IMG/VR virus record: IMGVR_UViG_3300029305_004466
Source: a virus
Taxonomy: Duplodnaviria; Caudoviricetes
DNA: 64,000 bases
Strand: one strand, 5' to 3'
Part shown: positions 46,005 through 56,059 of the stretch, piece by piece
How positions within the stretch are numbered: position 1 is the first letter of the stretch
Layout: every line of letters begins with the position of its first letter
Notes under the pieces: generated by a model
The model's database searches: none
What the model was told of the DNA's origin: nothing
The model's input: only the letters and a program-made list of their open reading frames with translations
Made by a program: the position numbers and the translations under genes

Positions 46005-46156
46005 CCTTGCGACTTTGAATTCGTGTTAAATGCGAGTTCCTTTCAAAGGTTTTTTCCAATAACATTCTAGTGTATAGACCTCTGTTTTCGGACATGTTCG
46101 CACACTGCTATTAGGGTTTTTGCATAGCTTAGGCTTTGGTAGCAGGAGAAAAACCT

Positions 46157-46228
<72 letters not shown>

Positions 46229-46543
46229 TTATCCTCTTAGTAACTTTGCAGAGTTATCTAAGAAAAAGACATAATTAAAGTCTTAGTAAAGTCCTGCAAG
46301 ACTGAAAAGACAATGACAACAACCTTGTGTCTTAGTGGTTCTAATTTGGTTGTAGATGTCAAAGGATTCTGTATCATGATGTGCTGACCTACCAATTTGT
46401 AGGGCTATGATGAGAAGTCTATAGTGGGACTCCTTCTCCAAGTCAGGCTATGTGCAGATGGTAAAAGAGTTGAACCTCACCTAACAGTTGCAGTTTGGCA
46501 GTTTGAATGGCAGCAGGGTGTTAATTAAGAAAAAACTGTCAAT

Positions 46544-46615
46544 GGCTCCTTGGTCAAGTGGTTAAGACATCGCCCTTTCACGGCGGTAACGCTGGTTCAA
46601 ACCCAGTAGGAGTCA
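46544..46615 (+). tRNA. tRNA-Glu(TTC)
   Basis: Cloverleaf; TCGCC-CT TTC AC-GGCGG. Confidence 0.92.
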
Positions 46616-46730
46616 TTTGGAGAAGAGGTAGGTAAGGTGGCAGGGATGGTTCCCATTGTGTTAGCAGTCGGTCAGAACGCTTTGACGGCAGTACCGCAGC
46701 TTAAAAATCAGTTTAGCTTCTCCAATACAT

Positions 46731-46804
46731 AGCGGGGTGGAGCAGTCCGGAAGCTCGTCAGGCTCATAACCTGAAGGTCGCAAGTTCAAATCTTGCCCCC
46801 GCCT
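46731..46804 (+). tRNA. tRNA-Met(CAT), initiator-like
   Basis: Cloverleaf; unpaired 1:72 (A-C); TCAGG-CT CAT AA-CCTGA. Confidence 0.88.
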
Positions 46805-46881
46805 CTGTAAGTTAATCCATTGACTTACACCTCACCTTATACCGCAGGCGTTCTTTGTAGCTTTCTCCTGCGGTATATAAT

Positions 46882-46967
46882 GGTAAGATGTCCGAGTGGC
46901 TTAAGGAGCTGGTCTTGAAAACCAGTGATGCGTAACTGCACCGTGAGTTCGAATCTCACTCTTACCG
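46882..46967 (+). tRNA. tRNA-Ser(TGA)
   Basis: Cloverleaf with long variable arm; CTGGT-CT TGA AA-ACCAG. Confidence 0.92.
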
Positions 46968-47182
46968 TTCTAAGTTCGAAAGGTCTTAGTTAAAAAACCT
47001 TAAACGTAAGGATTACAGAGGGCTATGGGTTGACGACCATAGAGCTTACGTTGTGAGAAAACCACAGGTGGCTAATCTGCTTTGTTCTATTAGCATGGAA
47101 AAATAGGAGAGTTAATTGAGCAATTTGTCTCACACAATATTGCTTAGGGCGGCAACCTCATGTCAAAGAAATAGCCAAACAC

Positions 47183-47268
47183 GGAGATTTACTCAAGTGG
47201 TTGAAGAGGAGGACTTGCTAAGTCTTTAGTATCGTAAGGTAGCGAAGGTTCGAATCCTTCAATCTCCG
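47183..47268 (+). tRNA. tRNA-Ser(GCT)
   Basis: Cloverleaf with long variable arm; AGGAC-TT GCT AA-GTCTT. Confidence 0.9.
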
Positions 47269-47514
47269 CTGAGCTGAGGTGCTAGAACTCAACTCTATGT
47301 AATAGACACACCTGTAAAAGATGTTTTGAGATTTAAGACTTCTTTTTGAAAGAAGCCACTGAATCAAAGTACATATCTACCTTGACCAGCTAGGTACGAC
47401 ATCAGTAGGAGGAAGTTACATAGATATGTTGGCAGTACGAAGAACTGTCTGCTTGGAAAATGAAGAATGATGGTCATTCCCGTTTCTACCATTTCTGTAC
47501 GTTAACAGAATTAA

Positions 47515-47588
47515 CGAGATGTAGGTCAGCTTGGTAGACCGCTTGATTTGGGTTCAAGAAGTCGCACGTTCGAATCGTGTCATCTCGA
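47515..47588 (+). tRNA. tRNA-Pro(TGG)
   Basis: Cloverleaf; CTTGA-TT TGG GT-TCAAG. Confidence 0.9.
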
Positions 47589-47664
47589 CTAGCCAGAACA
47601 GAAGACATTTCGAGTTCGGCAAGAAAAAACTACATAGTCTTCATTAAGAAAGGAGGAATGGTAT

Positions 47665-47868
47665 ATGATTATTATTGTTGGCGGATTGCTGTGTTGTATG
47701 CTGTTCTTCCTTGAAGAACGTGTAGGCACAATTACTATTATGAATGGAGTGCCAGAGATTAGTCTAACAGCGGTTAAGTGGCTTTTGAGGTTTAGTCACA
47801 TAAATTCTAACTACTGGCATCCTGAGCCCAGAGTGCTCACGACAGCTTTTGTAGGCGGATTTATATGA
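47665..47868 (+). CDS. Small hydrophobic protein
   Basis: AAGGAGG RBS; 67 aa inside the tRNA island. Confidence 0.4.
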   Translation: MIIIVGGLLCCMLFFLEERVGTITIMNGVPEISLTAVKWLLRFSHINSNYWHPEPRVLTTAFVGGFI

Positions 47869-48182
47869 ATAATGACCTCAAAGAAACCTACTACATTGTT
47901 GAAGTGAGCGTTTAATTATAGAATATAGAATATAAACTAAATTAACAGTCAACACCGACATTATGGCAGTGTCACAGTGAAGAAGGAAAACTTATAAAAC
48001 CCGTTAAGATATTAATCCCCACATATGATAAATTAGGGATTGTTCACTTAAATGGTTAGAAAGAAAGAATAAAATATGTTGACAAAGAGAGACGGCTTAA
48101 TGCCATTAAGCCATAGAACGAATAGAATGAATATTATGTAAACCGCCCCGGTCCCGGTTATGATGTCGGGGCGGTATTTTTT

Positions 48183-48294
48183 GGGACGATAGTTTAATTG
48201 GAAAAATACTGGCATTAGCAATAGCCCGGGATTGCTAGAGACGGAGTTGGAACACCGTATCACCAGAGACAGGAGTTCAATTCTCCGAGTCCCA
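48183..48294 (+). ncRNA. tRNA-like RNA with anticodon loop replaced by two hairpins
   Basis: GGGAC/GTCCC acceptor stem, D-arm, GGAG-TTCAATT-CTCC T-arm; CTGG/CCAG stem encloses ~50 nt. Confidence 0.65.
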
Positions 48295-48610
48295 CTTTCT
48301 CTTTCTGGGTTCCTGAATAGGAGTAGGCACTCATAATGCTTAGAATTCCTTTGTAAGAGAATATTAAAACTTCCATTATTGATACTGAGTATATTGTAAA
48401 CCTTGTTAATTGATGGACGAGGAGCAATTGTTATCTTTATCAATACAAAACCGATTTGATTCGGATAGGTAAATTGCCGAGGCAAGGTAAGTTATTAGTT
48501 TTGGTAGTCTAATAATAAAGAAGATGTGCTAAGAACAAGGATGGCGGTTGCATGATTAGCCATGGACAATGATTATGCAATGAGGCAGCAAATCGGTCTT
48601 AGCGACCTAT

Positions 48611-48684
48611 GGACCTTTAGCTCAGTTGGTTAGAGCGTCCGGCTCATAACCGGATGGTCGTAGGTTCGAGCCCTACAAGGTCCA
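48611..48684 (+). tRNA. tRNA-Ile2/Met(CAT)
   Basis: GGACCTTTAGCTCAGTTGGTTAGAGC...CT CAT AA...; body resembles Firmicute lysidine tRNA-Ile2. Confidence 0.88.
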
Positions 48685-48890
48685 CTATACCGAGGGATGG
48701 TAGACTGATATAACAGTGGATGACAGCAAAGTTTCGTCTGTCGAAGGGATAGGGGCAATACATGTTACCGCCTATCGTGTAGGTATAATATTACAAAGTG
48801 TATTCGAATGAGTATTCTGTTTAACGGAAGAAAGTCAATCTTAAATGTGAAATATCTATTGACGAGGATATAGTAACAGCTTTGTACTGT

Positions 48891-48960
48891 AGGACATTAG
48901 CTTAATGGTAAAGCACACGACTGATAATCGTGGTCAGCAGTTCGATTCTGTTATGTTCTA
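48891..48960 (+). tRNA. tRNA-Ile(GAT)
   Basis: CACGA-CT GAT AA-TCGTG; short variable loop. Confidence 0.8.
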
Positions 48961-49108
48961 TTCGGTGAAAAGCTGATAGATTACTGTCGATAGGGAGGCA
49001 GTTGCCCAGTGAAGGTAGCCGCCAGCTAACGCAGAGTAAATATGAGTATGGAGAACAAGTCCCCTATGATTTGCCATAAGCATACGAAATGGTTAGCTGG
49101 ATTAACCT

Positions 49109-49201
49109 CGGAGAGTAGCTCAGTGGGCAGAGCTTCTTGCTTAGAATGGGTAACTGCAAGTGAAATCCCGTTGGTCATGAGTTCGAATCTCATCTCTCCG
49201 T
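49109..49201 (+). ncRNA. tRNA-like RNA with pseudoknot in place of the anticodon arm
   Basis: CGGAGAG/CTCTCCG acceptor, GCTC/GAGC D-arm, ATGAG-TTCGAAT-CTCAT T-arm; middle CTTGC/GCAAG stem whose loop AATGGG can pair with CCCGTT. Confidence 0.7.
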
Positions 49202-49323
49202 CTTTGTAAAGGTAAGTTATGGATGCATAATACTAGGATGAAAGGACTTAACTTTAAATGTCAATCTTCAAAACAGTAAGCGACAGCCTTTACAAAATTG
49301 TATCTTGAAAGGAACATATTTTT

Positions 49324-49548
49324 ATGAATGTTGCATTTGCATCAAAAATTGCTAATCTTATTAAAACTGGTCATTATTGGTCATATGCACATATTGCTGA
49401 AGAGTTGCATATAAATAAAAACACAGTAGCTCGTATTGGGAAAATTTATAAAGATGCCCGATGGAGCATTTATAGTGTTGACCAATTAGCACAGAAGCAT
49501 CACGTTAGCAAAAATGTTATTCGGGCTATTCGTGGTACTAAAGTCTGA
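49324..49548 (+). CDS. Small tandem-HTH DNA-binding protein
   Basis: SYAHIAEELHINKNTVARI and SVDQLAQKHHVSKNVIRAI. Confidence 0.65.
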   Translation: MNVAFASKIANLIKTGHYWSYAHIAEELHINKNTVARIGKIYKDARWSIYSVDQLAQKHHVSKNVIRAIRGTKV

Positions 49549-49552
49549 AAAA

Positions 49553-49631
49553 GTGACACATAATTATTCACAAAAGGGTGAATAACTAATGTTTATTAGT
49601 TTGAAACGGGTTCAAATCCTGATGTGTCACC
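49553..49631 (+). ncRNA. Degenerate tRNA-like RNA
   Basis: GTGACACA/TGTGTCAC terminal stem and CGGG-TTCAAAT-CCTG T-arm; non-canonical D and anticodon hairpins. Confidence 0.45.
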
Positions 49632-50158
49632 TCAAGGGGCGATATATGAAAAAAGGTTTACTAAATCGCAAAGGGGCGGTTTTACTGCGGTAATAACTTT
49701 AATCATAATCACAGCTCCCGTGGGATAGATGGCTAAGGGATAGCTAAATCCCAATAGCAGGTTCCAATCGCAAGTTGTCCTGCCAAAAACCAAAAGGTTA
49801 TTGTGATAAGTATCATTTGTATGGAAACATACATGTGAGAAAAAACATCAGTGCTTGACATGCCAAAATACAAGCTGAATGAAGGTTGGTAAATGTATAC
49901 GCCAAAATACATAAGAGGTATATAAATATTAAAATAAATTGGATAATATTCATGATAAAACCGATTTAATATGTGAATTAACACAAGCAGTATATGTACC
50001 CGTTTGTCCAGTGAAGAATGAAGTATGTAACAAGTTGCATATACCATTGGATAGATTCAACCTTCAAGGTTGCCGTGAGACAAAAAGTAGGTATTTAGTA
50101 TGCAAAAGATATCAATGGCACGATAAATGAGTGAAATTCTCATCACTGATGTCAACTT

Positions 50159-50266
50159 GGAGAATTAGCTCAGTTGGCTAGAGCCCTACGAGGAGTTTCG
50201 ATTGGGTGAGCAATATGCTCCTAGACACCAGAAGAAACAGCCCCAGTTCGAATCTGGGATTCTCCA
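50159..50266 (+). ncRNA. tRNA-like RNA with expanded anticodon region
   Basis: GGAGAAT/ATTCTCC acceptor, GCTC-AGTTGGCTA-GAGC D-arm, CCCAG-TTCGAAT-CTGGG T-arm; AGGAG/CTCCT stem with loop GGTG able to pair with downstream CACC. Confidence 0.7.
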
Positions 50267-50631
50267 ATATGACGTTTTAGGGTTTGGGCTCTTACGTAGA
50301 GTTGTTGTCAAATACCCTCATCGCTTCTTATCAGGCGGAAAGAAAACGGGACAACAAGTAGAGGGGGCTGATAATCTCTTCGAAAGTACCGAATATCATT
50401 GATTCTAACAATTGCTAATGTTGCATGAAGCGTGTGCTTCTCTAGCTTCCAACTAGGGCTTAGCCGCTTATAGAATCACAAATGAATGAGTGTGGAAAAC
50501 TCAGGTAGGTGTAACCCCTACTATTCGGTTTGGAAGCATATACCCATTGTGCTTCTTGCCATTATGTGTAAGCCTTTTTTCGGCTAAAGAGAAGGAAACT
50601 CTTAAAAACCAAATTATAGCATTATACATCA

Positions 50632-50661
50632 TTGACACATTTTGTTGCAGTGGTGTATAAT
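50632..50661 (+). promoter_or_regulatory. Sigma-A promoter embedded in a long inverted repeat
   Basis: TTGACA-18 bp-TATAAT within TAGCATTATACATCATTG...CAGTGGTGTATAATGCTA. Confidence 0.55.
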
Positions 50662-50971
50662 GCTATTAGTTTTTATGGGAAGGAAACCCTATAATAAACC
50701 GTTAAGAAATTTTCATGTGGATATTTAAAACAAGAGCATGAAGGAGTCGGCATGGTAGCGAAAAAAGCCGAAAGCCTGTCTAATTTCACTTAAATGAAAG
50801 AAAGAAAAGACGAAAGGAAACCTCTACCAATCCCAGTCTAATATTTTGCAAAGGTATAAACTGAACCTGTTATCTATATATCCTAACATCTATACATTAG
50901 GTTTAAGTCGGGCCTGCATTAAAGTAGTCATTAAGTATAGAAATGTTTAAAACTACTGTATTGGACAACTT

Positions 50972-51102
50972 GCCGGAATATGCAAGCGGGTTGCAAGCAG
51001 CTATTTTTTAATAGTGAGTGAAACACATGAGTATAACTTGTGCTGTGACTGTCCTATGTGGGAGTAGGACATTAAAAGGGAGTTCGAATCTTCTATCCGG
51101 CA
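50972..51102 (+). ncRNA. tRNA(Leu-body)-like RNA with giant variable region
   Basis: GCCGGA/TCCGGC acceptor and GGGAG-TTCGAAT-CTTCT T-arm; no 7-nt anticodon loop; two extra hairpins. Confidence 0.6.
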
Positions 51103-51136
51103 CTTACATAATCTTATGGAAAGGAGAAAAATCACT

Positions 51137-51415
51137 ATGAACAAGACTGAATTAGTTAAGGTTATTGCTGATACTCAGGGTATTGCAGTGAAAGATGCTG
51201 AAAAGGCTATTAATGGCTTCATGGAAGTTGTTAAGACCGAAGTAGCAAAAGGCAATCCTGTACAGTTAGTTGGTTTTGGTACATTTACTGTAAGTAAACG
51301 TGCTGAAAAGACTGGTATCAATCCTCAGACTAAGGAAAAGATGGTTATTCCTGCTTGCAATGCACCTAAATTCAAAGCTGGCGAAAAGTTTAAGCAGATG
51401 GTTAAAGAAGCATAA
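51137..51415 (+). CDS. hup: HU family DNA-binding protein
   Basis: MNKTELV...VQLVGFGTFTVSKRAEKTGINPQTKEKMVIPA...PKFKAG. Confidence 0.95.
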   Translation: MNKTELVKVIADTQGIAVKDAEKAINGFMEVVKTEVAKGNPVQLVGFGTFTVSKRAEKTGINPQTKEKMVIPACNAPKFKAGEKFKQMVKEA

Positions 51416-51493
51416 TTTCCGGTAGTTAGCGGTGGACGTTTTTACTTTTCTATTTTCATCATCGCTTTATAAAACAAGGACAAGATAGATAGT

Positions 51494-51570
51494 TGTATGT
51501 GTAAGCTCAGTTGGGAGAGCTGGGGCGGAGAACCCGCCTTGTGCGAAGGTTCGAGTCCTTCCATGTGCAA
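51494..51570 (+). ncRNA. Pseudo-tRNA / tRNA-like RNA (GAA in loop, no U33)
   Basis: D-arm GCTC-AGTTGGGA-GAGC and T-arm GAAGG-TTCGAGT-CCTTC; anticodon arm GGGCG-GAGAACC-CGCCT is non-canonical. Confidence 0.55.
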
Positions 51571-51697
51571 TATTAGCCACTGGTATTATTTTAAATGTAA
51601 CCTAATAACCATTTTAAAAATCTTTGGTAGGCTACATAATCACACCTAACCACAATACTTAATGCCAGTGGTTACTTAAAAAAGGAGGAATTCAAAA

Positions 51698-51856
51698 ATG
51701 AACAGAAACAGAAAGTTAAGCACAGCTACCTATGGACCAAGACACGTACAGCCACACAACCCTTATTCTATGGCTACAAAGTCAGGTATGAAGAAGATGC
51801 ACACAGATAAGACTCGTGGCGGTAATCCTGATGGTAGAGCAAACAGAGATATGTAA
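51698..51856 (+). CDS. Small basic protein (52 aa)
   Basis: AAAGGAGG RBS; MNRNRKLSTATYGPRHVQPHNPYSM...; below the ORF-track cutoff. Confidence 0.55.
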   Translation: MNRNRKLSTATYGPRHVQPHNPYSMATKSGMKKMHTDKTRGGNPDGRANRDM

Positions 51857-51884
51857 TTACATAGCAGGTCTATGACCTGCAAAT

Positions 51885-51957
51885 GGGTCACTAGCTCAGT
51901 AGGTAGAGCACTAGACTTTTAATCTAGGTGTCACGGGTTCGAACCCCGTGTGGCTCA
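51885..51957 (+). tRNA. tRNA-Lys(TTT)
   Basis: Cloverleaf; CTAGA-CT TTT AA-TCTAG. Confidence 0.92.
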
Positions 51958-52042
51958 CTAGCCCCTTCGGGGCATTAATAGTAACTATTAATAGACGGGT
52001 TTACCGTCTTTTTTATTGGTTTTACAGAAAGGAAAGAGTATA

Positions 52043-52516
52043 ATGGAAAAAACAAAAGAATTGTGTAGCAAGATATACATGCATTGGTTCTTAGAAGAAA
52101 TGAAAGACCCCAAAATGCCTTACAAAGAAATTGATGAGGAATTTCTACAGAACTCTTTTATCACAAAGATTCTTCTTACAAAATTTAAATCGTTTGATGT
52201 TGATATTCATTTACCAATGCCTCTGTTAGCATTATTATCATTGTGTACAGATGAAAATCCGGGCATGTCTCAAATCATTCTTAAGGATTTACTTAATAGC
52301 ATTAAATCACGCATGGGAGCTATACCAAAAGGCTACGTTATTACGTCTACAGATTTTGCTTTTTGTTTCCCAAATAGTTTCCCTATAATTGCTAACGAGC
52401 AAATTTATGAGAAGTATATTAAATTATGGGATGGACAAAAACGTGAAAGACCAAATGAAATGGCAAGTGATAACTTGTGTGACACACCTGAATGGTGGAA
52501 AGAGGTTATGCAATGA
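52043..52516 (+). CDS. Hypothetical protein
   Basis: Start MEKTKE. Confidence 0.55.
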   Translation: MEKTKELCSKIYMHWFLEEMKDPKMPYKEIDEEFLQNSFITKILLTKFKSFDVDIHLPMPLLALLSLCTDENPGMSQIILKDLLNSIKSRMGAIPKGYVITSTDFAFCFPNSFPIIANEQIYEKYIKLWDGQKRERPNEMASDNLCDTPEWWKEVMQ

Positions 52517-52698
52517 AAAGAAAAGTAAACAGGTTTTTTAAGGCATTGTTGGCGGGGACAGCTGTTTTTGCAATAGCTACAACATTCGCATTACTTATTA
52601 GCTATTTTGTTAAGAACTCTTCAGCGATAGGCATCTTAGGAGTGATATTCATTCTTGTATTGGTAGTCGGTTATGCCTTAACTTCAGACCTGCCTTAA
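52513..52698 (+). CDS. Small two-TM membrane protein
   Basis: Two hydrophobic helices; GAGG RBS. Confidence 0.5.
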   Translation: MKRKVNRFFKALLAGTAVFAIATTFALLISYFVKNSSAIGILGVIFILVLVVGYALTSDLP

Positions 52699-52836
52699 AT
52701 AAAAAGGAGGAAAAGAGTATGAAAAAGAAGGATAAGAAACGCAAATGGAGTAATCGTGATAACATATTTGTTATTACAGCTATAATAATCCTGATAATTT
52801 CGACTGCACTAATTATTATACGTTAGGAGAAAAAAC

Positions 52837-53343
52837 ATGGCGATAATGGGTGAATGGATTCCGCATTGTGGATTCAAATCAAAAGCTGATGCTCACAAAG
52901 TAGCGTTAGAGCTTGAAAGCATCGGATATGATAATGGCACCGATGAATTTAATACACAAGAAATTGTAGATTTTGCACGTAATAATCCCACTTGTGAAAT
53001 TCATAAGTTATTAGAATGGGACGATAAAATAGCTGCTGAAGCTCATCGTAATGAGCAAGCGAGAGAGATTCTTCGTTTTCTTAAAATCACTGTTGTAACA
53101 ACACAGGAAGACAATCCAGTATTTCAGCCAACAAAAGTAAGATACTTTGTTAATACTGGTAAACATGATGGAACATATAAGAAAACTGAAGTCGTATTCC
53201 AGAATGCTAGTGAAGCAGACAGAATTATGGAAGGTATGAGGCGTGATGCTGAGAATTTTATTAACAGATATCAGATTTATGCTCATCTTAATCCGAATAT
53301 TCCTGCTGCTATTCAGGCATTACAAGCAGTAATCAATCCTTAA
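52837..53343 (+). CDS. Phage protein (IH..LEWDD..AAE..R..QAR motif); candidate accessory of the repeat/RAMP system
   Basis: 168 aa; ends immediately before the pentamer array. Confidence 0.6.
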   Translation: MAIMGEWIPHCGFKSKADAHKVALELESIGYDNGTDEFNTQEIVDFARNNPTCEIHKLLEWDDKIAAEAHRNEQAREILRFLKITVVTTQEDNPVFQPTKVRYFVNTGKHDGTYKKTEVVFQNASEADRIMEGMRRDAENFINRYQIYAHLNPNIPAAIQALQAVINP

Positions 53344-53353
53344 TAAGTTGATG

Positions 53354-53952
53354 TTTTCTCTTGCATATATATTGGCTTAAATGCCAATGACAATAAGGCA
53401 ATTCATTGCACATAATTTCATAACAGGACAGCACAAAATACGTCAACATAGGCTAAGACATGTTAGCTCACATGGCTCTTTTGAGCCAATATATATGTAA
53501 GAGAGGACAGGACAACTCAGTGCATTTTACCACAATGAATGACAATCTATAACATGACAGAGGGGCGAGGACACTCGCCCCATTTTTATAAGTATAAATA
53601 TTGGCTTTAATTAGTCAATGAATATATTACAATACAAATGCACGATAGCTTAATACTGAACAGAATAGCATAATGCATGATACAATAAAACACATGGCTC
53701 TTAGAGCCTTTATTTATGCTTATAAATAGTAGGATTATGAATACATATATTGGCTTTAATGGTCAATGAAAACAAAATAAGTAAGCTGATTATTGTACAG
53801 AACAGCCCAGCCCACTACAAAACAGTACAGGACAAAACAAATGGCTCTTAGAGCCTTTATATGTGTTCATAAACACAAGCACAAAGACAGCAGAATACAT
53901 GTCAGTGCAACATAGGATATTACAAAACATTTAAATCCTATCAAAAGATAGG
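53354..53952 (+). repeat. Array of hairpin-framed pentamer (N-Y-A-N-N) tracts; candidate guide RNAs
   Basis: Three cassettes with outer stem, ATTGGCTT..CAATG hairpin, tract and ATGGCTCTT(T/A)GAGCC hairpin (53354-53505, 53585-53726, 53735-53872), plus two free tracts (53507-53561, 53887-53936). A at unit position 3 in 16/16, 11/11, 13/14 and 10/10 units of tracts A, B, D, E. Confidence 0.85.
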
Positions 53953-53970
53953 TAGAAGGAGACACACATT

Positions 53971-54645
53971 ATGGCAACAAAGAAAAACACAACCCCAGAA
54001 GTACAGGTAGTAGAAACTGAATTACAGAATAAGATTCGTTTCGCTACAGCAACAATCACCATTCAGGGTGATAGCGATTTAATTCTTAACAAGATGAGAG
54101 ACAGTACTACACAGCAGCTTGCAGATAAGCAGGAAGGTAAAGTACAGGGTACTAAGGCTCCTGTTAATATGTATGAGCATCTTGTTGGTTCTATTCACTG
54201 GTTAAAGGGTGAAGAAACTAACTATACAGAAGAAGGATGGAAAAATGCATTAGCAAACAATACTCCGGGTTATCCATCTTCTGGTTTAAAGAAAGCTCTT
54301 TGCGATGCAGTTGTTCGTGTATTAGGTGAAACATATAGCACGAAATTTAATGCAAATATGCAGATTCTTGATAGTTTCCTGCCGATTAAGTTTGCGGCAA
54401 GCACATATGATAAGTCTTTATTTAGTCCACAGAAGGGCAGTCCTGTCCTTTGTTACAGAAATGTATTCAAAGACTGGGAAACAACTTTCACAATCAAGTA
54501 CATTCCAGATAACTATTCTCTGGACCAGATTCTTGAAGTTATCAATTGTGCAGGCTTTGCATGTGGTATTGGTAGCCACAGACCATCTAGTAAGGGCGGT
54601 TCCAATGGTATGTTCCATGTAGCAAAGGTTGTAGAAATGGTATAG
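53971..54645 (+). CDS. RAMP/Cas7-like RNA-binding protein (Vipr-like)
   Basis: N-terminal ITIQGDSDLILN strand, YPSSGLKKAL helix (RAMP PxSxxKG-like) and C-terminal Gly loop AGFACGIGSHRPSSKGGSNGMFHV; abuts the pentamer array. Confidence 0.75.
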   Translation: MATKKNTTPEVQVVETELQNKIRFATATITIQGDSDLILNKMRDSTTQQLADKQEGKVQGTKAPVNMYEHLVGSIHWLKGEETNYTEEGWKNALANNTPGYPSSGLKKALCDAVVRVLGETYSTKFNANMQILDSFLPIKFAASTYDKSLFSPQKGSPVLCYRNVFKDWETTFTIKYIPDNYSLDQILEVINCAGFACGIGSHRPSSKGGSNGMFHVAKVVEMV

Positions 54646-54652
54646 GTGTTTT

Positions 54653-55111
54653 ATGGCTGATTCAAAGAAAAGATTATATTCAAGAGAAACCATTAACAAG
54701 CATTACAGCGATTTTATTGAACAGGTAAAAACTTATAATGAAAAAGGCTTTCCTGATAAAATACTTGATGTTGTTATTTTTGGTTCGTACATTAATACAA
54801 ACAACCCTAAAATGCACGACTTGGATATAGGAATAAGATTTGAAAAACATCCAGAACTGTATGAGGATTACAAAAAGAAAATGTCAAAAGAGCAATTGGA
54901 GAAATATGCAAACAGATGTTTTTTGGACAGATTAGTAATACCTCATACAGAGGAAATTAGATTTTTAAAAGCAAAGCATGGAACTATTTCTCTATATGAT
55001 ATTGATTATGACAAAGAATATATCTTTAATGATAAACATTTGTACATAGTAAAAAATGGCGAGCTAATAGAAGATGCATTACCTATTCCTTTGAATTTGC
55101 AAACCAAATAA
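54653..55111 (+). CDS. Minimal nucleotidyltransferase (Pol-beta superfamily)
   Basis: VVIFGSY...DLDIGI motif. Confidence 0.75.
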   Translation: MADSKKRLYSRETINKHYSDFIEQVKTYNEKGFPDKILDVVIFGSYINTNNPKMHDLDIGIRFEKHPELYEDYKKKMSKEQLEKYANRCFLDRLVIPHTEEIRFLKAKHGTISLYDIDYDKEYIFNDKHLYIVKNGELIEDALPIPLNLQTK

Positions 55112-55119
55112 GGTGAAAA

Positions 55120-55332
55120 ATGATGAGTATTAACAAAAACCGTTATATAGGAAAAAAGATAGGTTTTTATTACGACAGTAAAAAAGCCGTACATGAAGTA
55201 GAAGCTATTATAAAAGACGTAAGTATTTTAGGTATACTGGTAAGAGTTACCAAAAGTAGTAATGTATTTTACAATGTAAGCAACCAGTATCTTATTCCGC
55301 TAAATGCAAGTTTTGTATACAAATTCTTATAA
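55120..55332 (+). CDS. Hypothetical protein
   Basis: 70 aa with AAGGTG RBS. Confidence 0.45.
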   Translation: MMSINKNRYIGKKIGFYYDSKKAVHEVEAIIKDVSILGILVRVTKSSNVFYNVSNQYLIPLNASFVYKFL

Positions 55333-55342
55333 GGAGGTACAT

Positions 55343-55591
55343 ATGTCACCGATTGAAATTCAGGAAATCACAAACAGAGTAAATGCTATGACTGAAGAAG
55401 AACAGGTTTTAGTCGCTTCTCTGTTACCTGTACAGCTTATGTTAGATGCAATTAATGCTAAGTATAACGCTGTTGCAGATGAATTAGATGAAATGAACGA
55501 ACTCATGAGAATTAAGAATAACCAGATTACAAGAGCAGCAGGTACTACAAGAACACTTACACATGTTCTTAATGAAATAGCGGCTGGTTAA
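55343..55591 (+). CDS. Hypothetical protein
   Basis: Start MSPIE after AAGGAGGT. Confidence 0.55.
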   Translation: MSPIEIQEITNRVNAMTEEEQVLVASLLPVQLMLDAINAKYNAVADELDEMNELMRIKNNQITRAAGTTRTLTHVLNEIAAG

Positions 55592-55598
55592 ATTTCTG

Positions 55599-55627
55599 TT
55601 GACACAAAATGTTACAAGCATTATAAT
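55599..55627 (+). promoter_or_regulatory. Consensus sigma-A promoter upstream of tRNA-Gln
   Basis: TTGACA-17 bp-TATAAT. Confidence 0.8.
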
Positions 55628-55858
55628 GTCATTATCCTTAATATGAGTTCATGAATTGGTTACTGTAATGCTCAGTATTAAATCATGGTTGCCTCTCGAT
55701 TGGCATTAAAAGGTCAGCCATAGCCAAAAACATTTCTACCTATCAGGTGGGTTAGGGGATTATCCCCGCTTACTAAAAAACTTTTGTACGCTGGAAGTTC
55801 CGTAGGGGTGTCTGTTAGCTTAGGGCGAAACAGAGGGTAGTTTATAAAGCGTACACCT

Positions 55859-55931
55859 TGGGCTATCGCCAAGCGGTAAGGCACAGCACTTTGACTGCTG
55901 CATTTCGTTGGTTCAAATCCAACTAGCCCAG
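55859..55931 (+). tRNA. tRNA-Gln(TTG)
   Basis: Cloverleaf; CAGCA-CT TTG AC-TGCTG. Confidence 0.92.
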
Positions 55932-56059
55932 TTCGAGATGAAAATCTCGCAGAAACCTTTATTATGTTGTTTGTTGATTAATAATATAATTCGTGTTTCT
56001 ACTTCCTTTCTGGCAGGGGCGTGTATAACGCCCCAATTTTATTATATGGAGGACATATC

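Follow-up and report, generated by a model that had tools for sequence, protein, structure and literature searches.

A Probable VIPR System with a Non-Canonical A-Y-A Guide Scaffold in a Large Phage of Gut or Rumen Clostridia

Results and Discussion

A RAMP gene, a small accessory gene, and five pentamer tracts form one phage locus

The stretch of DNA analyzed here, referred to as the window, comprises 64,000 nucleotides (nt) of the IMG/VR virus record IMGVR_UViG_3300029305_004466 (Duplodnaviria; Caudoviricetes) and contains a gene for a RAMP protein (vipr) that is preceded by an array of period-5 tracts and by a small accessory gene (Table 1). An original prediction, made from the sequence, had proposed that the RAMP gene and the array are an RNA-guided system resembling VIPR (Viral Interference Programmable Repeat), with an ACA/NYA scaffold in place of GGY. 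In published VIPR systems, a Vipr RAMP is combined with vrRNAs of 9 to 16 YNNGG units and a structured 3' tail, DNA is recognized by a code in which two bases are read and one is skipped, and the phages and satellites that are targeted compete with the carrier; the systems fall into seven types, with vap accessory genes, and some of the types have relaxed repeats (NNNGG, YNNNG, or NNNNG) (10.64898/2026.04.26.720920). The prediction had described VIPR as a RAMP protein with GGY-NN pentamer RNAs and a gapped code, correctly so according to that source. Our results indicated that the locus is very probably a VIPR system, of a non-canonical A-Y-A variant, belonging to an approximately 210-kb phage of gut or rumen Clostridia. 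The basis for this is protein homology and fold, the repeat logo, synteny, covariation in the stems, gapped-code matches, and the absence of the target genes from complete relatives.

The 627 nt between the stop codon of the accessory open reading frame (ORF) and the start codon of vipr hold five plus-strand tracts of N-Y-A-N-N pentamers. When the rest of the window was scanned on both strands for N-Y-A units, chains had at most 8 fitting units, those of 7 to 8 being interrupted, and at least one chain with 8 fitting units was reached in only 2.6% of 2000 shuffles of the 627-nt region. Moreover, a motif-free scan of the 64 kb for period-5 information placed its top three 45-nt segments, and four of the eight best, in the array region. 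The five strictly 5-nt-periodic tracts of the prediction were confirmed.

Relatives of the Vipr protein are encoded by 228 IMG/VR stretches, of which 80 were kept and, together with 4 loci from other assemblies, gave 84 related vipr loci. A tract logo was compiled from the 78 unique loci, with position 1 of the pentamer not used in picking the tracts. These loci held 352 AYA-NN tracts on the vipr strand within 1.25 kb upstream of the gene, compared to 8 downstream and 4 on the minus strand. In the family logo, the frequencies at positions 1 to 3 were 0.80 for A, 0.95 for Y, and 0.97 for A; the entropies at these positions were 0.99, 1.10, and 0.27 bits, versus 1.96 and 1.94 bits at positions 4 and 5. 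Therefore, the predicted pattern of A at position 3, a pyrimidine at position 2, and free choice at positions 4 and 5 applies to the family at large, and homologues of 42 to 96% identity all had AYA-NN tracts upstream on the same strand. G occurred at positions 1 to 3 with frequencies of 0.11, 0.01, and 0.02, and the array accordingly conforms neither to GGY nor to the NNNGG, YNNNG, and NNNNG relaxations. Compared to the relatives at 86% and 96% identity, the cassette scaffold was nearly invariant and tracts 1, 3, and 4 were replaced; tracts 2 and 5 were conserved, tract 2 nearly invariantly so. Tract 3 seemingly has one 6-nt unit near its 5' end (window 53620-53640), a register slip, and a 1-nt insertion creates a 6-nt unit in the tract 2 copies of two relatives (L001 and L002).

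Table 1. Features of the candidate VIPR locus and their positions in the window
Feature	Position	Strand	Description
Accessory gene, vap-like candidate	52837-53343	+	168 amino acids; precedes the array in 81 of 84 loci (tblastn)
Putative vrRNA cassette 1	53352-53509	+	Closing stem of about 30 bp enclosing tract 1
Guide tract 1	53393-53472	+	16 units, 15 fitting N-Y-A
Guide tract 2	53497-53561	+	13 units, 11 fitting N-Y-A
Tract 2 cap	53562-53588	+	8-bp GC hairpin (53562-53581), then a T run; intrinsic-terminator-like
Putative vrRNA cassette 2	53585-53726	+	Closing stem, conserved scaffold; holds tract 3
Guide tract 3	53640-53694	+	11 units, 10 fitting N-Y-A
Putative vrRNA cassette 3	53735-53872	+	Closing stem, conserved scaffold; holds tract 4
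Guide tract 4	53797-53841	+	9 units, 9 fitting N-Y-A
Guide tract 5	53887-53931	+	9 units, 8 fitting N-Y-A
Tract 5 cap	53937-53952	+	6-bp hairpin directly before the vipr ribosome-binding site
vipr gene	53971-54645	+	224-amino-acid single-RRM RAMP, Cas7-like; G-loop G-I-G-S-H-R

Tract 1 matches a family-A DNA polymerase motif in a gapped register

To read a tract in the VIPR code, its NN dinucleotides were written with one free base between them. Read in this way, units 2 to 15 of tract 1 correspond, codon by codon, to a run of 14 codons of MFQFYGANRTGRWA, a family-A DNA polymerase motif, in the sense strand. A 9-unit core of tract 1 gave at least 107 matches in IMG/VR, and five comparable 9-unit patterns gave 3 (tract 4), 2 (tract 3), and 0 (tract 2, tract 5, and a guide of the 44%-identity clade). 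All of the tract 1 sites listed were in frame and encoded the motif G(M/L)(F/L)QFYGANRTGRWAGR..Q.QNLP; the free base coincided with the wobble position. The at least 107 sites listed comprised 88 distinct sequences that differed at the free positions. Units outside the search pattern matched as well: 11 to 14 of the 16 units did so in every match listed, and units 2 to 15 were matched in 25 of the matches listed. The genes concerned are family-A DNA polymerases (PF00476, E value of 1e-21; phrog_17, E value of 1e-141).

The 14-unit pattern, with 28 fixed bases, found 55 exact matches in bacterial assemblies sampled at one genome per species, against a chance expectation of about 1e-5. Nearly all of these were in Bacillota (Lachnospiraceae, Oscillospiraceae, Acutalibacteraceae, Syntrophomonadaceae, streptococci, and others), several from rumen or gut samples. 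In "Ca. Heliusvirales" phages of Ruminococcus and Oscillospiraceae that have this polymerase, 12 to 13 of the 16 tract 1 units were matched; Heliusvirales are a widespread intestinal phage lineage (PMC11283538). A 28-base gapped match with 55 genome matches and at least 107 viral matches, versus 0 to 3 for the controls, cannot be due to chance. Because the wobble base is skipped, one guide fits at least 88 different polymerase gene sequences.

The same counts bear on a quite different explanation, in which the ACA-rich tracts serve as a sponge or decoy for a protein, such as an ACA-specific endoribonuclease or an RNA chaperone, or as a structured leader for vipr mRNA, with the polymerase match a mere coincidence. 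ACA is a recognition triplet of MazF-type toxins, and three of the five tracts have no assigned target, both of which would suit such a role. However, the 55 genome matches and at least 107 viral matches, compared to 0 to 3 for the control patterns, effectively refute a coincidence; moreover, independent guides of relatives match the same phages (see below), and the positions that vary coincide with the two exposed in a VIPR guide. This explanation is therefore the least credible of those considered here.

Guides of related loci converge on replication genes and use both DNA strands

The 172 unique guides of the family were scored against target-phage DNA. The guide of one relative (L003) matched polymerase motif B RQKGKIAELALGYGG in antisense over 13 consecutive units at 56 sites, that of a second (L001) matched motif B in sense over 8 units at 28 sites, and that of a third (L083) matched the helicase motif HPASAGHGLNLQ in sense over 10 units at 22 sites. 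With skip lengths of 0, 2, and 3, runs among the 172 guides did not exceed 8, 9, and 7 units, respectively, and other skips thus stayed at background. The register with a 1-nt skip was thus recovered bioinformatically for tract 1 and for the guides of three relatives. Guides of several carriers converge on replication genes of one phage group, which parallels the convergence of SUSP1 guides on a satellite. In addition, a guide of a 65%-identity relative (L084 1986-2050) matched 8 to 9 units at a gene end with its stop codon in 13 polymerase-bearing loci, where the gene end reads T-D/E-F-Y-K-K-D-stop.

Strand use was also relevant to the possibility that RNA rather than DNA is the pairing partner, the tracts being antisense-type regulators of mRNA from a rival or from the phage itself. 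RAMP backbones of type III CRISPR systems do target RNA, and two guides have the antisense orientation, tract 2 relative to a methyltransferase coding strand and the L003 guide relative to polymerase motif B. However, tract 1 and the L001 and L083 guides are in the coding-strand sense, which makes pairing with mRNA impossible; for tract 1, the template DNA strand is the only possible partner. If DNA is the target, guides on both strands are expected, and such use of both strands has been reported for SUSP1 VIPR. RNA targeting is thus improbable, and recognition of DNA is the reading followed below.

The remaining tracts gave less. The strict core of tract 2 had no matches; when one guide U was permitted opposite a target G, 51 matches were obtained, far above background, all 51 of them antisense to the C5 cytosine methyltransferase motif X, (I/M)QIGNAVPP, and one wobble-allowed match covered all 13 units. 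We rate the chances that motif X of the C5-methyltransferase is the target of tract 2 as about even. For tract 3, two related matches lay in a tail-terminator gene of a GC-rich phage, over 10 contiguous units, and were judged to be possibly due to chance; the 3 viral and 2 metagenome matches of tract 4 did not reach beyond the units searched, and tract 5 had no target matches. Against 1.36 Mb of polymerase-bearing target loci, tracts 2 to 5 scored at background, as did tracts 3 to 5 against approximately 1.8 Mb of polymerase and methyltransferase loci combined, in which a recurrent 20/30 match of tract 4 was no better than the permuted-guide null from the 1.36-Mb comparison.

A self-target scan of the window with the five guides and skip lengths of 0 to 3 gave background. 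Genes for polymerase A and C5 methyltransferase were absent from the 64-kb window, and PF00476 and PF00145 were absent from the two closest relatives, complete genomes of 213 and 208 kb. The carrier is viral, and the targets are found in Heliusvirales-like phages and Bacillota genomes, with no self match in the window.

The Vipr protein is related to SUSP1 Vipr and differs from it in the G-loop

The original prediction had seen RAMP hallmarks in the 224-amino-acid protein, including a C-terminal Gly loop; the loop is present, and the protein is related in sequence to SUSP1 Vipr. A phmmer search with the protein against PDB matched entry 36pp, "SUSP1 Vipr protein," with an E value of 4.9e-5, and a profile of 35 family sequences matched the same entry with an E value of 7.3e-7 over the segment from the thumb to the G-loop. 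Similarity to SUSP1 Vipr is confined to approximately 50 to 60 C-terminal residues, and Pfam has no family for the protein. A HMMER search recovered 1122 cluster representatives at an E value of ≤0.001, which places the protein in a large superfamily. The AlphaFold2 (AF2) model (pLDDT, 83.2; pTM, 0.78) gave the RAMP fold asked for in the structural check that had been proposed: its best structural matches were Csm3, Cmr4, and other Cas7 proteins (Foldseek E value, 2e-7), and comparison with VIA gave Z scores of up to 11.7, with 154 residues aligned at a root mean square deviation of 4.0 Å. The fold libraries searched were without the solved Vipr entry, and SUSP1 Vipr was compared by sequence.

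In the cryo-electron microscopy structure of SUSP1 Vipr, H17 and D177 read G1, R138 and W178 hold G2, and Y3 lies in a pocket that includes R179 (10.64898/2026.04.26.720927). In the alignment, D177 and W178 correspond to S202 and H203 of the window protein, and the arginines R138 and R179 are conserved, as R163 and R204. The family alignment has 13 invariant columns. The G-loop motif could be located in 79 close homologues, every one of which had the triplet [S/A/C][G/H/R][R/T/K] (SGR, SHR, or AHR in 73) and none of which had a Trp or an acidic residue there. It could also be located in 78 of the more distant representatives (P0131 to P0230), among which [D/E]WR was the commonest triplet, with 44 occurrences. 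The window thus pairs A-Y-A with S-H-R (S/A-G/H-R in the family), whereas SUSP1 pairs G-G-Y with D-W-R. As judged from these alignments, the A-Y-A letters appear to go together with a change in exactly the G-loop residues that touch them, which is a correlation and not a test.

Three guides are enclosed in long, covarying stems

A repeat scan showed that inverted repeats of 25 to 30 nt close cassettes 1 to 3; those of cassette 1 (53352-53381 and 53480-53509) are 87% complementary, and its minimum free energy (MFE) is -56.4 kcal/mol. Relative to shuffled sequences, the folds of cassettes 1, 2, and 3 had z scores of -7.9, -4.6, and -5.3. The common fold of 11 cassettes that share the scaffold consists of an outer stem of 13 to 16 bp, a 2-nt internal loop, an 8-bp stem in which the conserved 5' element pairs with its conserved 3' counterpart, and a short inner stem, with the pentamer tract in the enclosed loop. 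Within this alignment fold, compensatory double changes were present in 12 of 24 pairs, and almost no pairs were broken. Family-wide, the median energy of the flank duplexes was -31.6 kcal/mol for cognate flanks versus -14.1 kcal/mol for non-cognate flanks, and duplexes of -25 kcal/mol or better were formed by 62% of the former versus 10% of the latter. Conserved U:G pairs in the closing stem, which would be A:C mismatches on the other strand, fit only the plus strand.

The scaffold of the prediction consisted of an outer stem and two local hairpins (ATTGGC..CAAT and GGCTC..GAGCC). The outer stem stood, by the inverted repeats and covariation. The two hairpin elements, in both MFE and alignment folds, pair with each other over a long range; the same conserved letters could instead form the local hairpins, so that the inner part may adopt either of two forms, the long-range one being that of the predicted folds. 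The remaining two tracts were found to end in hairpins of their own, as had been claimed, and the cap stem of tract 2 varies among relatives and yet remains paired.

The 3' element GGCTCTTAGAGCC followed by a T-rich run gave a weak score as an intrinsic terminator (window 53696-53718 and 53843-53865, plus strand). The T-rich run doubles as the 3' arm of the closing stem, and termination and long-range pairing would therefore be mutually exclusive.

Replication iterons were discarded as an account of the array: an RNA guide better explains both the G:U pairs, which are strand specific, and the gapped match to coding sequence.

Relation to known VIPR systems and Cas7 backbones

The locus shares much with the type II VIPR of Escherichia phage SUSP1 and of a Pseudomonas fulva prophage. 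In each, a single small RAMP with a G-loop and a thumb accompanies RNAs of approximately 100 to 150 nt (putative in the window), built from pentamers in which three bases are fixed and two are hypervariable; the code reads two bases and skips one, with the skipped base at the codon wobble position and both DNA strands used; the system is phage borne, has targets in competing elements and none in itself, and has one small accessory gene, which in the window is a vap-like candidate; and cas1/cas2 and a CRISPR array are absent. Unlike in those systems, the guides in the window precede vipr and follow the accessory gene, whose product showed no similarity to any named protein. Furthermore, three of the window guides are predicted to lie within long covarying stems, whereas vrRNAs of the SUSP1 clade have a 3' pseudoknot tail.

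Arrays with other fixed letters have been reported: 21 clusters of Vipr-associated period-5 arrays are described with non-GGY cores such as GAC, CAC, WGT, and TGH, and for these, that work gives motifs and predicted folds and reports no targets, code test, scaffold structure, or accessory gene (10.64898/2026.10.21.760802). As in those clusters, the window has a period-5 array with a non-GGY trinucleotide beside a Vipr-like fold. Its commonest unit, ACA-NN, reads TGT-NN on the opposite strand and is thus compatible with the WGT/NN and TGH/NN clusters; because sequences were oriented in that study without reference to the gene (80% success), the window family may be among them. On comparison by motif, the window family is possibly one of these unnamed clusters.

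A further relative, gp39 of Gordonia phage UmaThurman (NC_031249), was found by tblastn with 26% identity over 95% of the query (E value, 4e-9). Like the window gene, gp39 adjoins a pentamer array; unlike it, the units are canonical GGY-NN, the G-loop is E-W-R, and the array is downstream of the gene. The neighboring gp40 (L309 3143-3466; NC_031249 33362-33685), annotated as a hypothetical protein, is a run of GGY-NN pentamers and, judging from its letters, is probably a vrRNA array misannotated as a coding sequence.

Like the Cas7 backbones Csm3, Cmr4, and Cas7, the system would place one protomer per fixed interval of RNA, with a thumb that interrupts pairing. Unlike them, the interval is 5 nt rather than 6 nt, and three guide bases are displaced for each target base. 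The locus also differs from class 1 CRISPR effectors in having no repeat-spacer array, Cas5, Cas6, Cas10, Cas3, or adaptation genes.

The accessory gene is a conserved part of the system

The original prediction had treated the ORF that begins at 52837 merely as the boundary of the array. Instead, this 168-amino-acid ORF occurs in 81 of the 84 loci, and the nucleotidyltransferase ORF downstream of vipr occurs in none of them, which indicated that the unit consists of the accessory gene, the array, and vipr. The protein falls in PHROG 15946, which has no assigned function; searches gave no match in Pfam or in PDB by sequence, and a search of the Atlas returned only unnamed viral clusters. In its AF2 model (pLDDT, 78.6), an alpha/beta part forms the N terminus and a helical hairpin forms the C terminus. 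Foldseek gave no match to this model at an E value of ≤0.001, and comparison with VIA gave Z scores of 5.3 to 6.1, which are below the level for calling a fold, mostly to winged-helix DNA binders (forkhead, Z-alpha, and Fur), with matches to helical hairpins among them.

We therefore considered whether recognition is of the VIPR type and the target is nevertheless destroyed or nicked, by the 168-amino-acid protein or by a nuclease recruited from the host. The conservation of the accessory gene in 81 of 84 loci while no function is assigned to it would leave room for this, and published VIPR types III to V do carry nuclease or helicase accessories. However, searches with the accessory protein revealed neither a nuclease family nor a nuclease motif, the folds that it weakly resembles are those of winged-helix-like DNA binders rather than of nucleases, and published phage-borne systems with DNA-binding accessories work by repression. 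A nucleolytic outcome thus appears unlikely, although it is the most plausible of the alternatives considered here.

Proposed mechanism and interpretation

For the favored VIPR system, we infer transcription, ribonucleoprotein assembly, DNA binding, silencing, and processing as follows. The plus strand from 53352 to 53960 would be transcribed into five vrRNAs, and one Vipr protomer would bind each pentamer, sequestering the fixed A-Y-A and exposing the two variable bases. The exposed dinucleotides would pair with double-stranded DNA in the two-read, one-skipped register, in which a guide can be written on codon positions 1 and 2 of a protein motif and ignore the wobble position. Tract 1 would be aimed at the family-A DNA polymerase gene of competing phages, in the region of the TGR motif, these rivals being Heliusvirales-like phages and prophages of Clostridia and other Bacillota, and tract 2 would probably be aimed at C5-methyltransferase motif X. 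Since the locus is without a nuclease, binding would block rival transcription or replication, as shown for SUSP1 VIPR, with the conserved 168-amino-acid protein as accessory partner. Three guides would be delivered in cassettes with a closing stem of at least 24 bp, plausibly a site for processing by RNase III or a structural cap; a stem of this length would be a classical RNase III substrate.

Several observations weigh against this reading. The GGY consensus that defines published VIPR does not describe the A-Y-A array. Three of the five guides (tracts 3, 4, and 5) found only matches at chance level, and the conserved guide of the 44%-identity clade found none. The assignment of tract 2 is the weaker one because it needs one rU:dG wobble, the motif is near-universal, and no exact target was found. 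The statement that self targets are absent covers the window and two relatives. Finally, the accessory fold is not recognizable, so that the output of the system, silencing or other, can be proposed by analogy only.

Some of the same observations could be accommodated by a decaying or inactive remnant of a VIPR system, considering that the repeat is degenerate, with exceptions to A-Y-A and some 6-nt units, and that three guides are undecoded. Such a remnant would not be expected, however, to have an intact ORF, the same three-part order in 81 of 84 loci across 42 to 96% protein identity, 13 invariant protein columns, compensatory changes in the stems, and perfect 14-unit guide matches to live targets. 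We consider a remnant quite improbable, slightly less credible even than RNA targeting.

Taken together, homology to SUSP1 Vipr, the logo, and the decoding of tract 1 support a VIPR-type system with the ACA/NYA scaffold that had been predicted. Going further, we lean somewhat toward regarding the locus as a distinct VIPR type, in which the A-Y-A scaffold is read by an S-[H/G]-R G-loop, stem-closed cassettes could be excised by a double-strand-specific RNase, and guides are written against amino-acid motifs, namely the TGR motif, motif B, the helicase motif, and motif X. If that is so, the locus would provide a second, non-cross-reacting programmable DNA-binding scaffold and a natural example of nucleic-acid targeting at the level of protein motifs, and an entire order of rival gut phages (Heliusvirales-like) could be within reach of a single guide, synonymous drift notwithstanding.

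VIPR was described in 2026, and functional and structural work has so far been on GGY/NN guides. A G-free scaffold with matching changes in the residues that read G1 and G2 suggests that the scaffold letters are exchangeable, which bears on the evolution of the RAMP-RNA interface, and the A-Y-A/S-H-R pairing offers an orthogonal pair for engineering. Wobble skipping would give a large phage a broad weapon against a widespread gut phage lineage, and a concrete pair can be named, the carrier phage versus Heliusvirales-like phages of Clostridia, with exact target sites.

Flanking genes and other features of the region

The prediction that conventional repeats are lacking held: between 53300 and 54000, a repeat scan gave no long direct repeats separated by spacers, and Rfam found no CRISPR or other family in 52000-55500. 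The four scanned ORFs adjoining the array were one nucleotidyltransferase and proteins without a family, which is not the gene set of a class 1 CRISPR-Cas system. An array interspersed with hammerheads was set aside because Rfam had no match, and a diversity-generating retroelement or retron RNA was set aside because there is no reverse transcriptase and no template/variable repeat pair.

The nucleotidyltransferase-domain ORF (152 amino acids; window 54653-55111, plus strand; PF01909, E value of 4.4e-6) begins 8 nt past the vipr stop codon. It was absent from all 84 related vipr loci and is therefore variable cargo outside the system. On the contigs of L081, L084, and P0007, gene-free gaps of 0.5 to 1.2 kb are also present downstream of vipr, with few AYA-NN tracts in them. 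A Vipr protein identical to that of the window was found on contigs of up to 210 kb. Eleven tRNA genes surround the locus (window 46156-55932, plus strand), for Asn, Glu, Met (two), Ser (two), Pro, Ile, Leu, Lys, and Gln, which fits a large phage genome.

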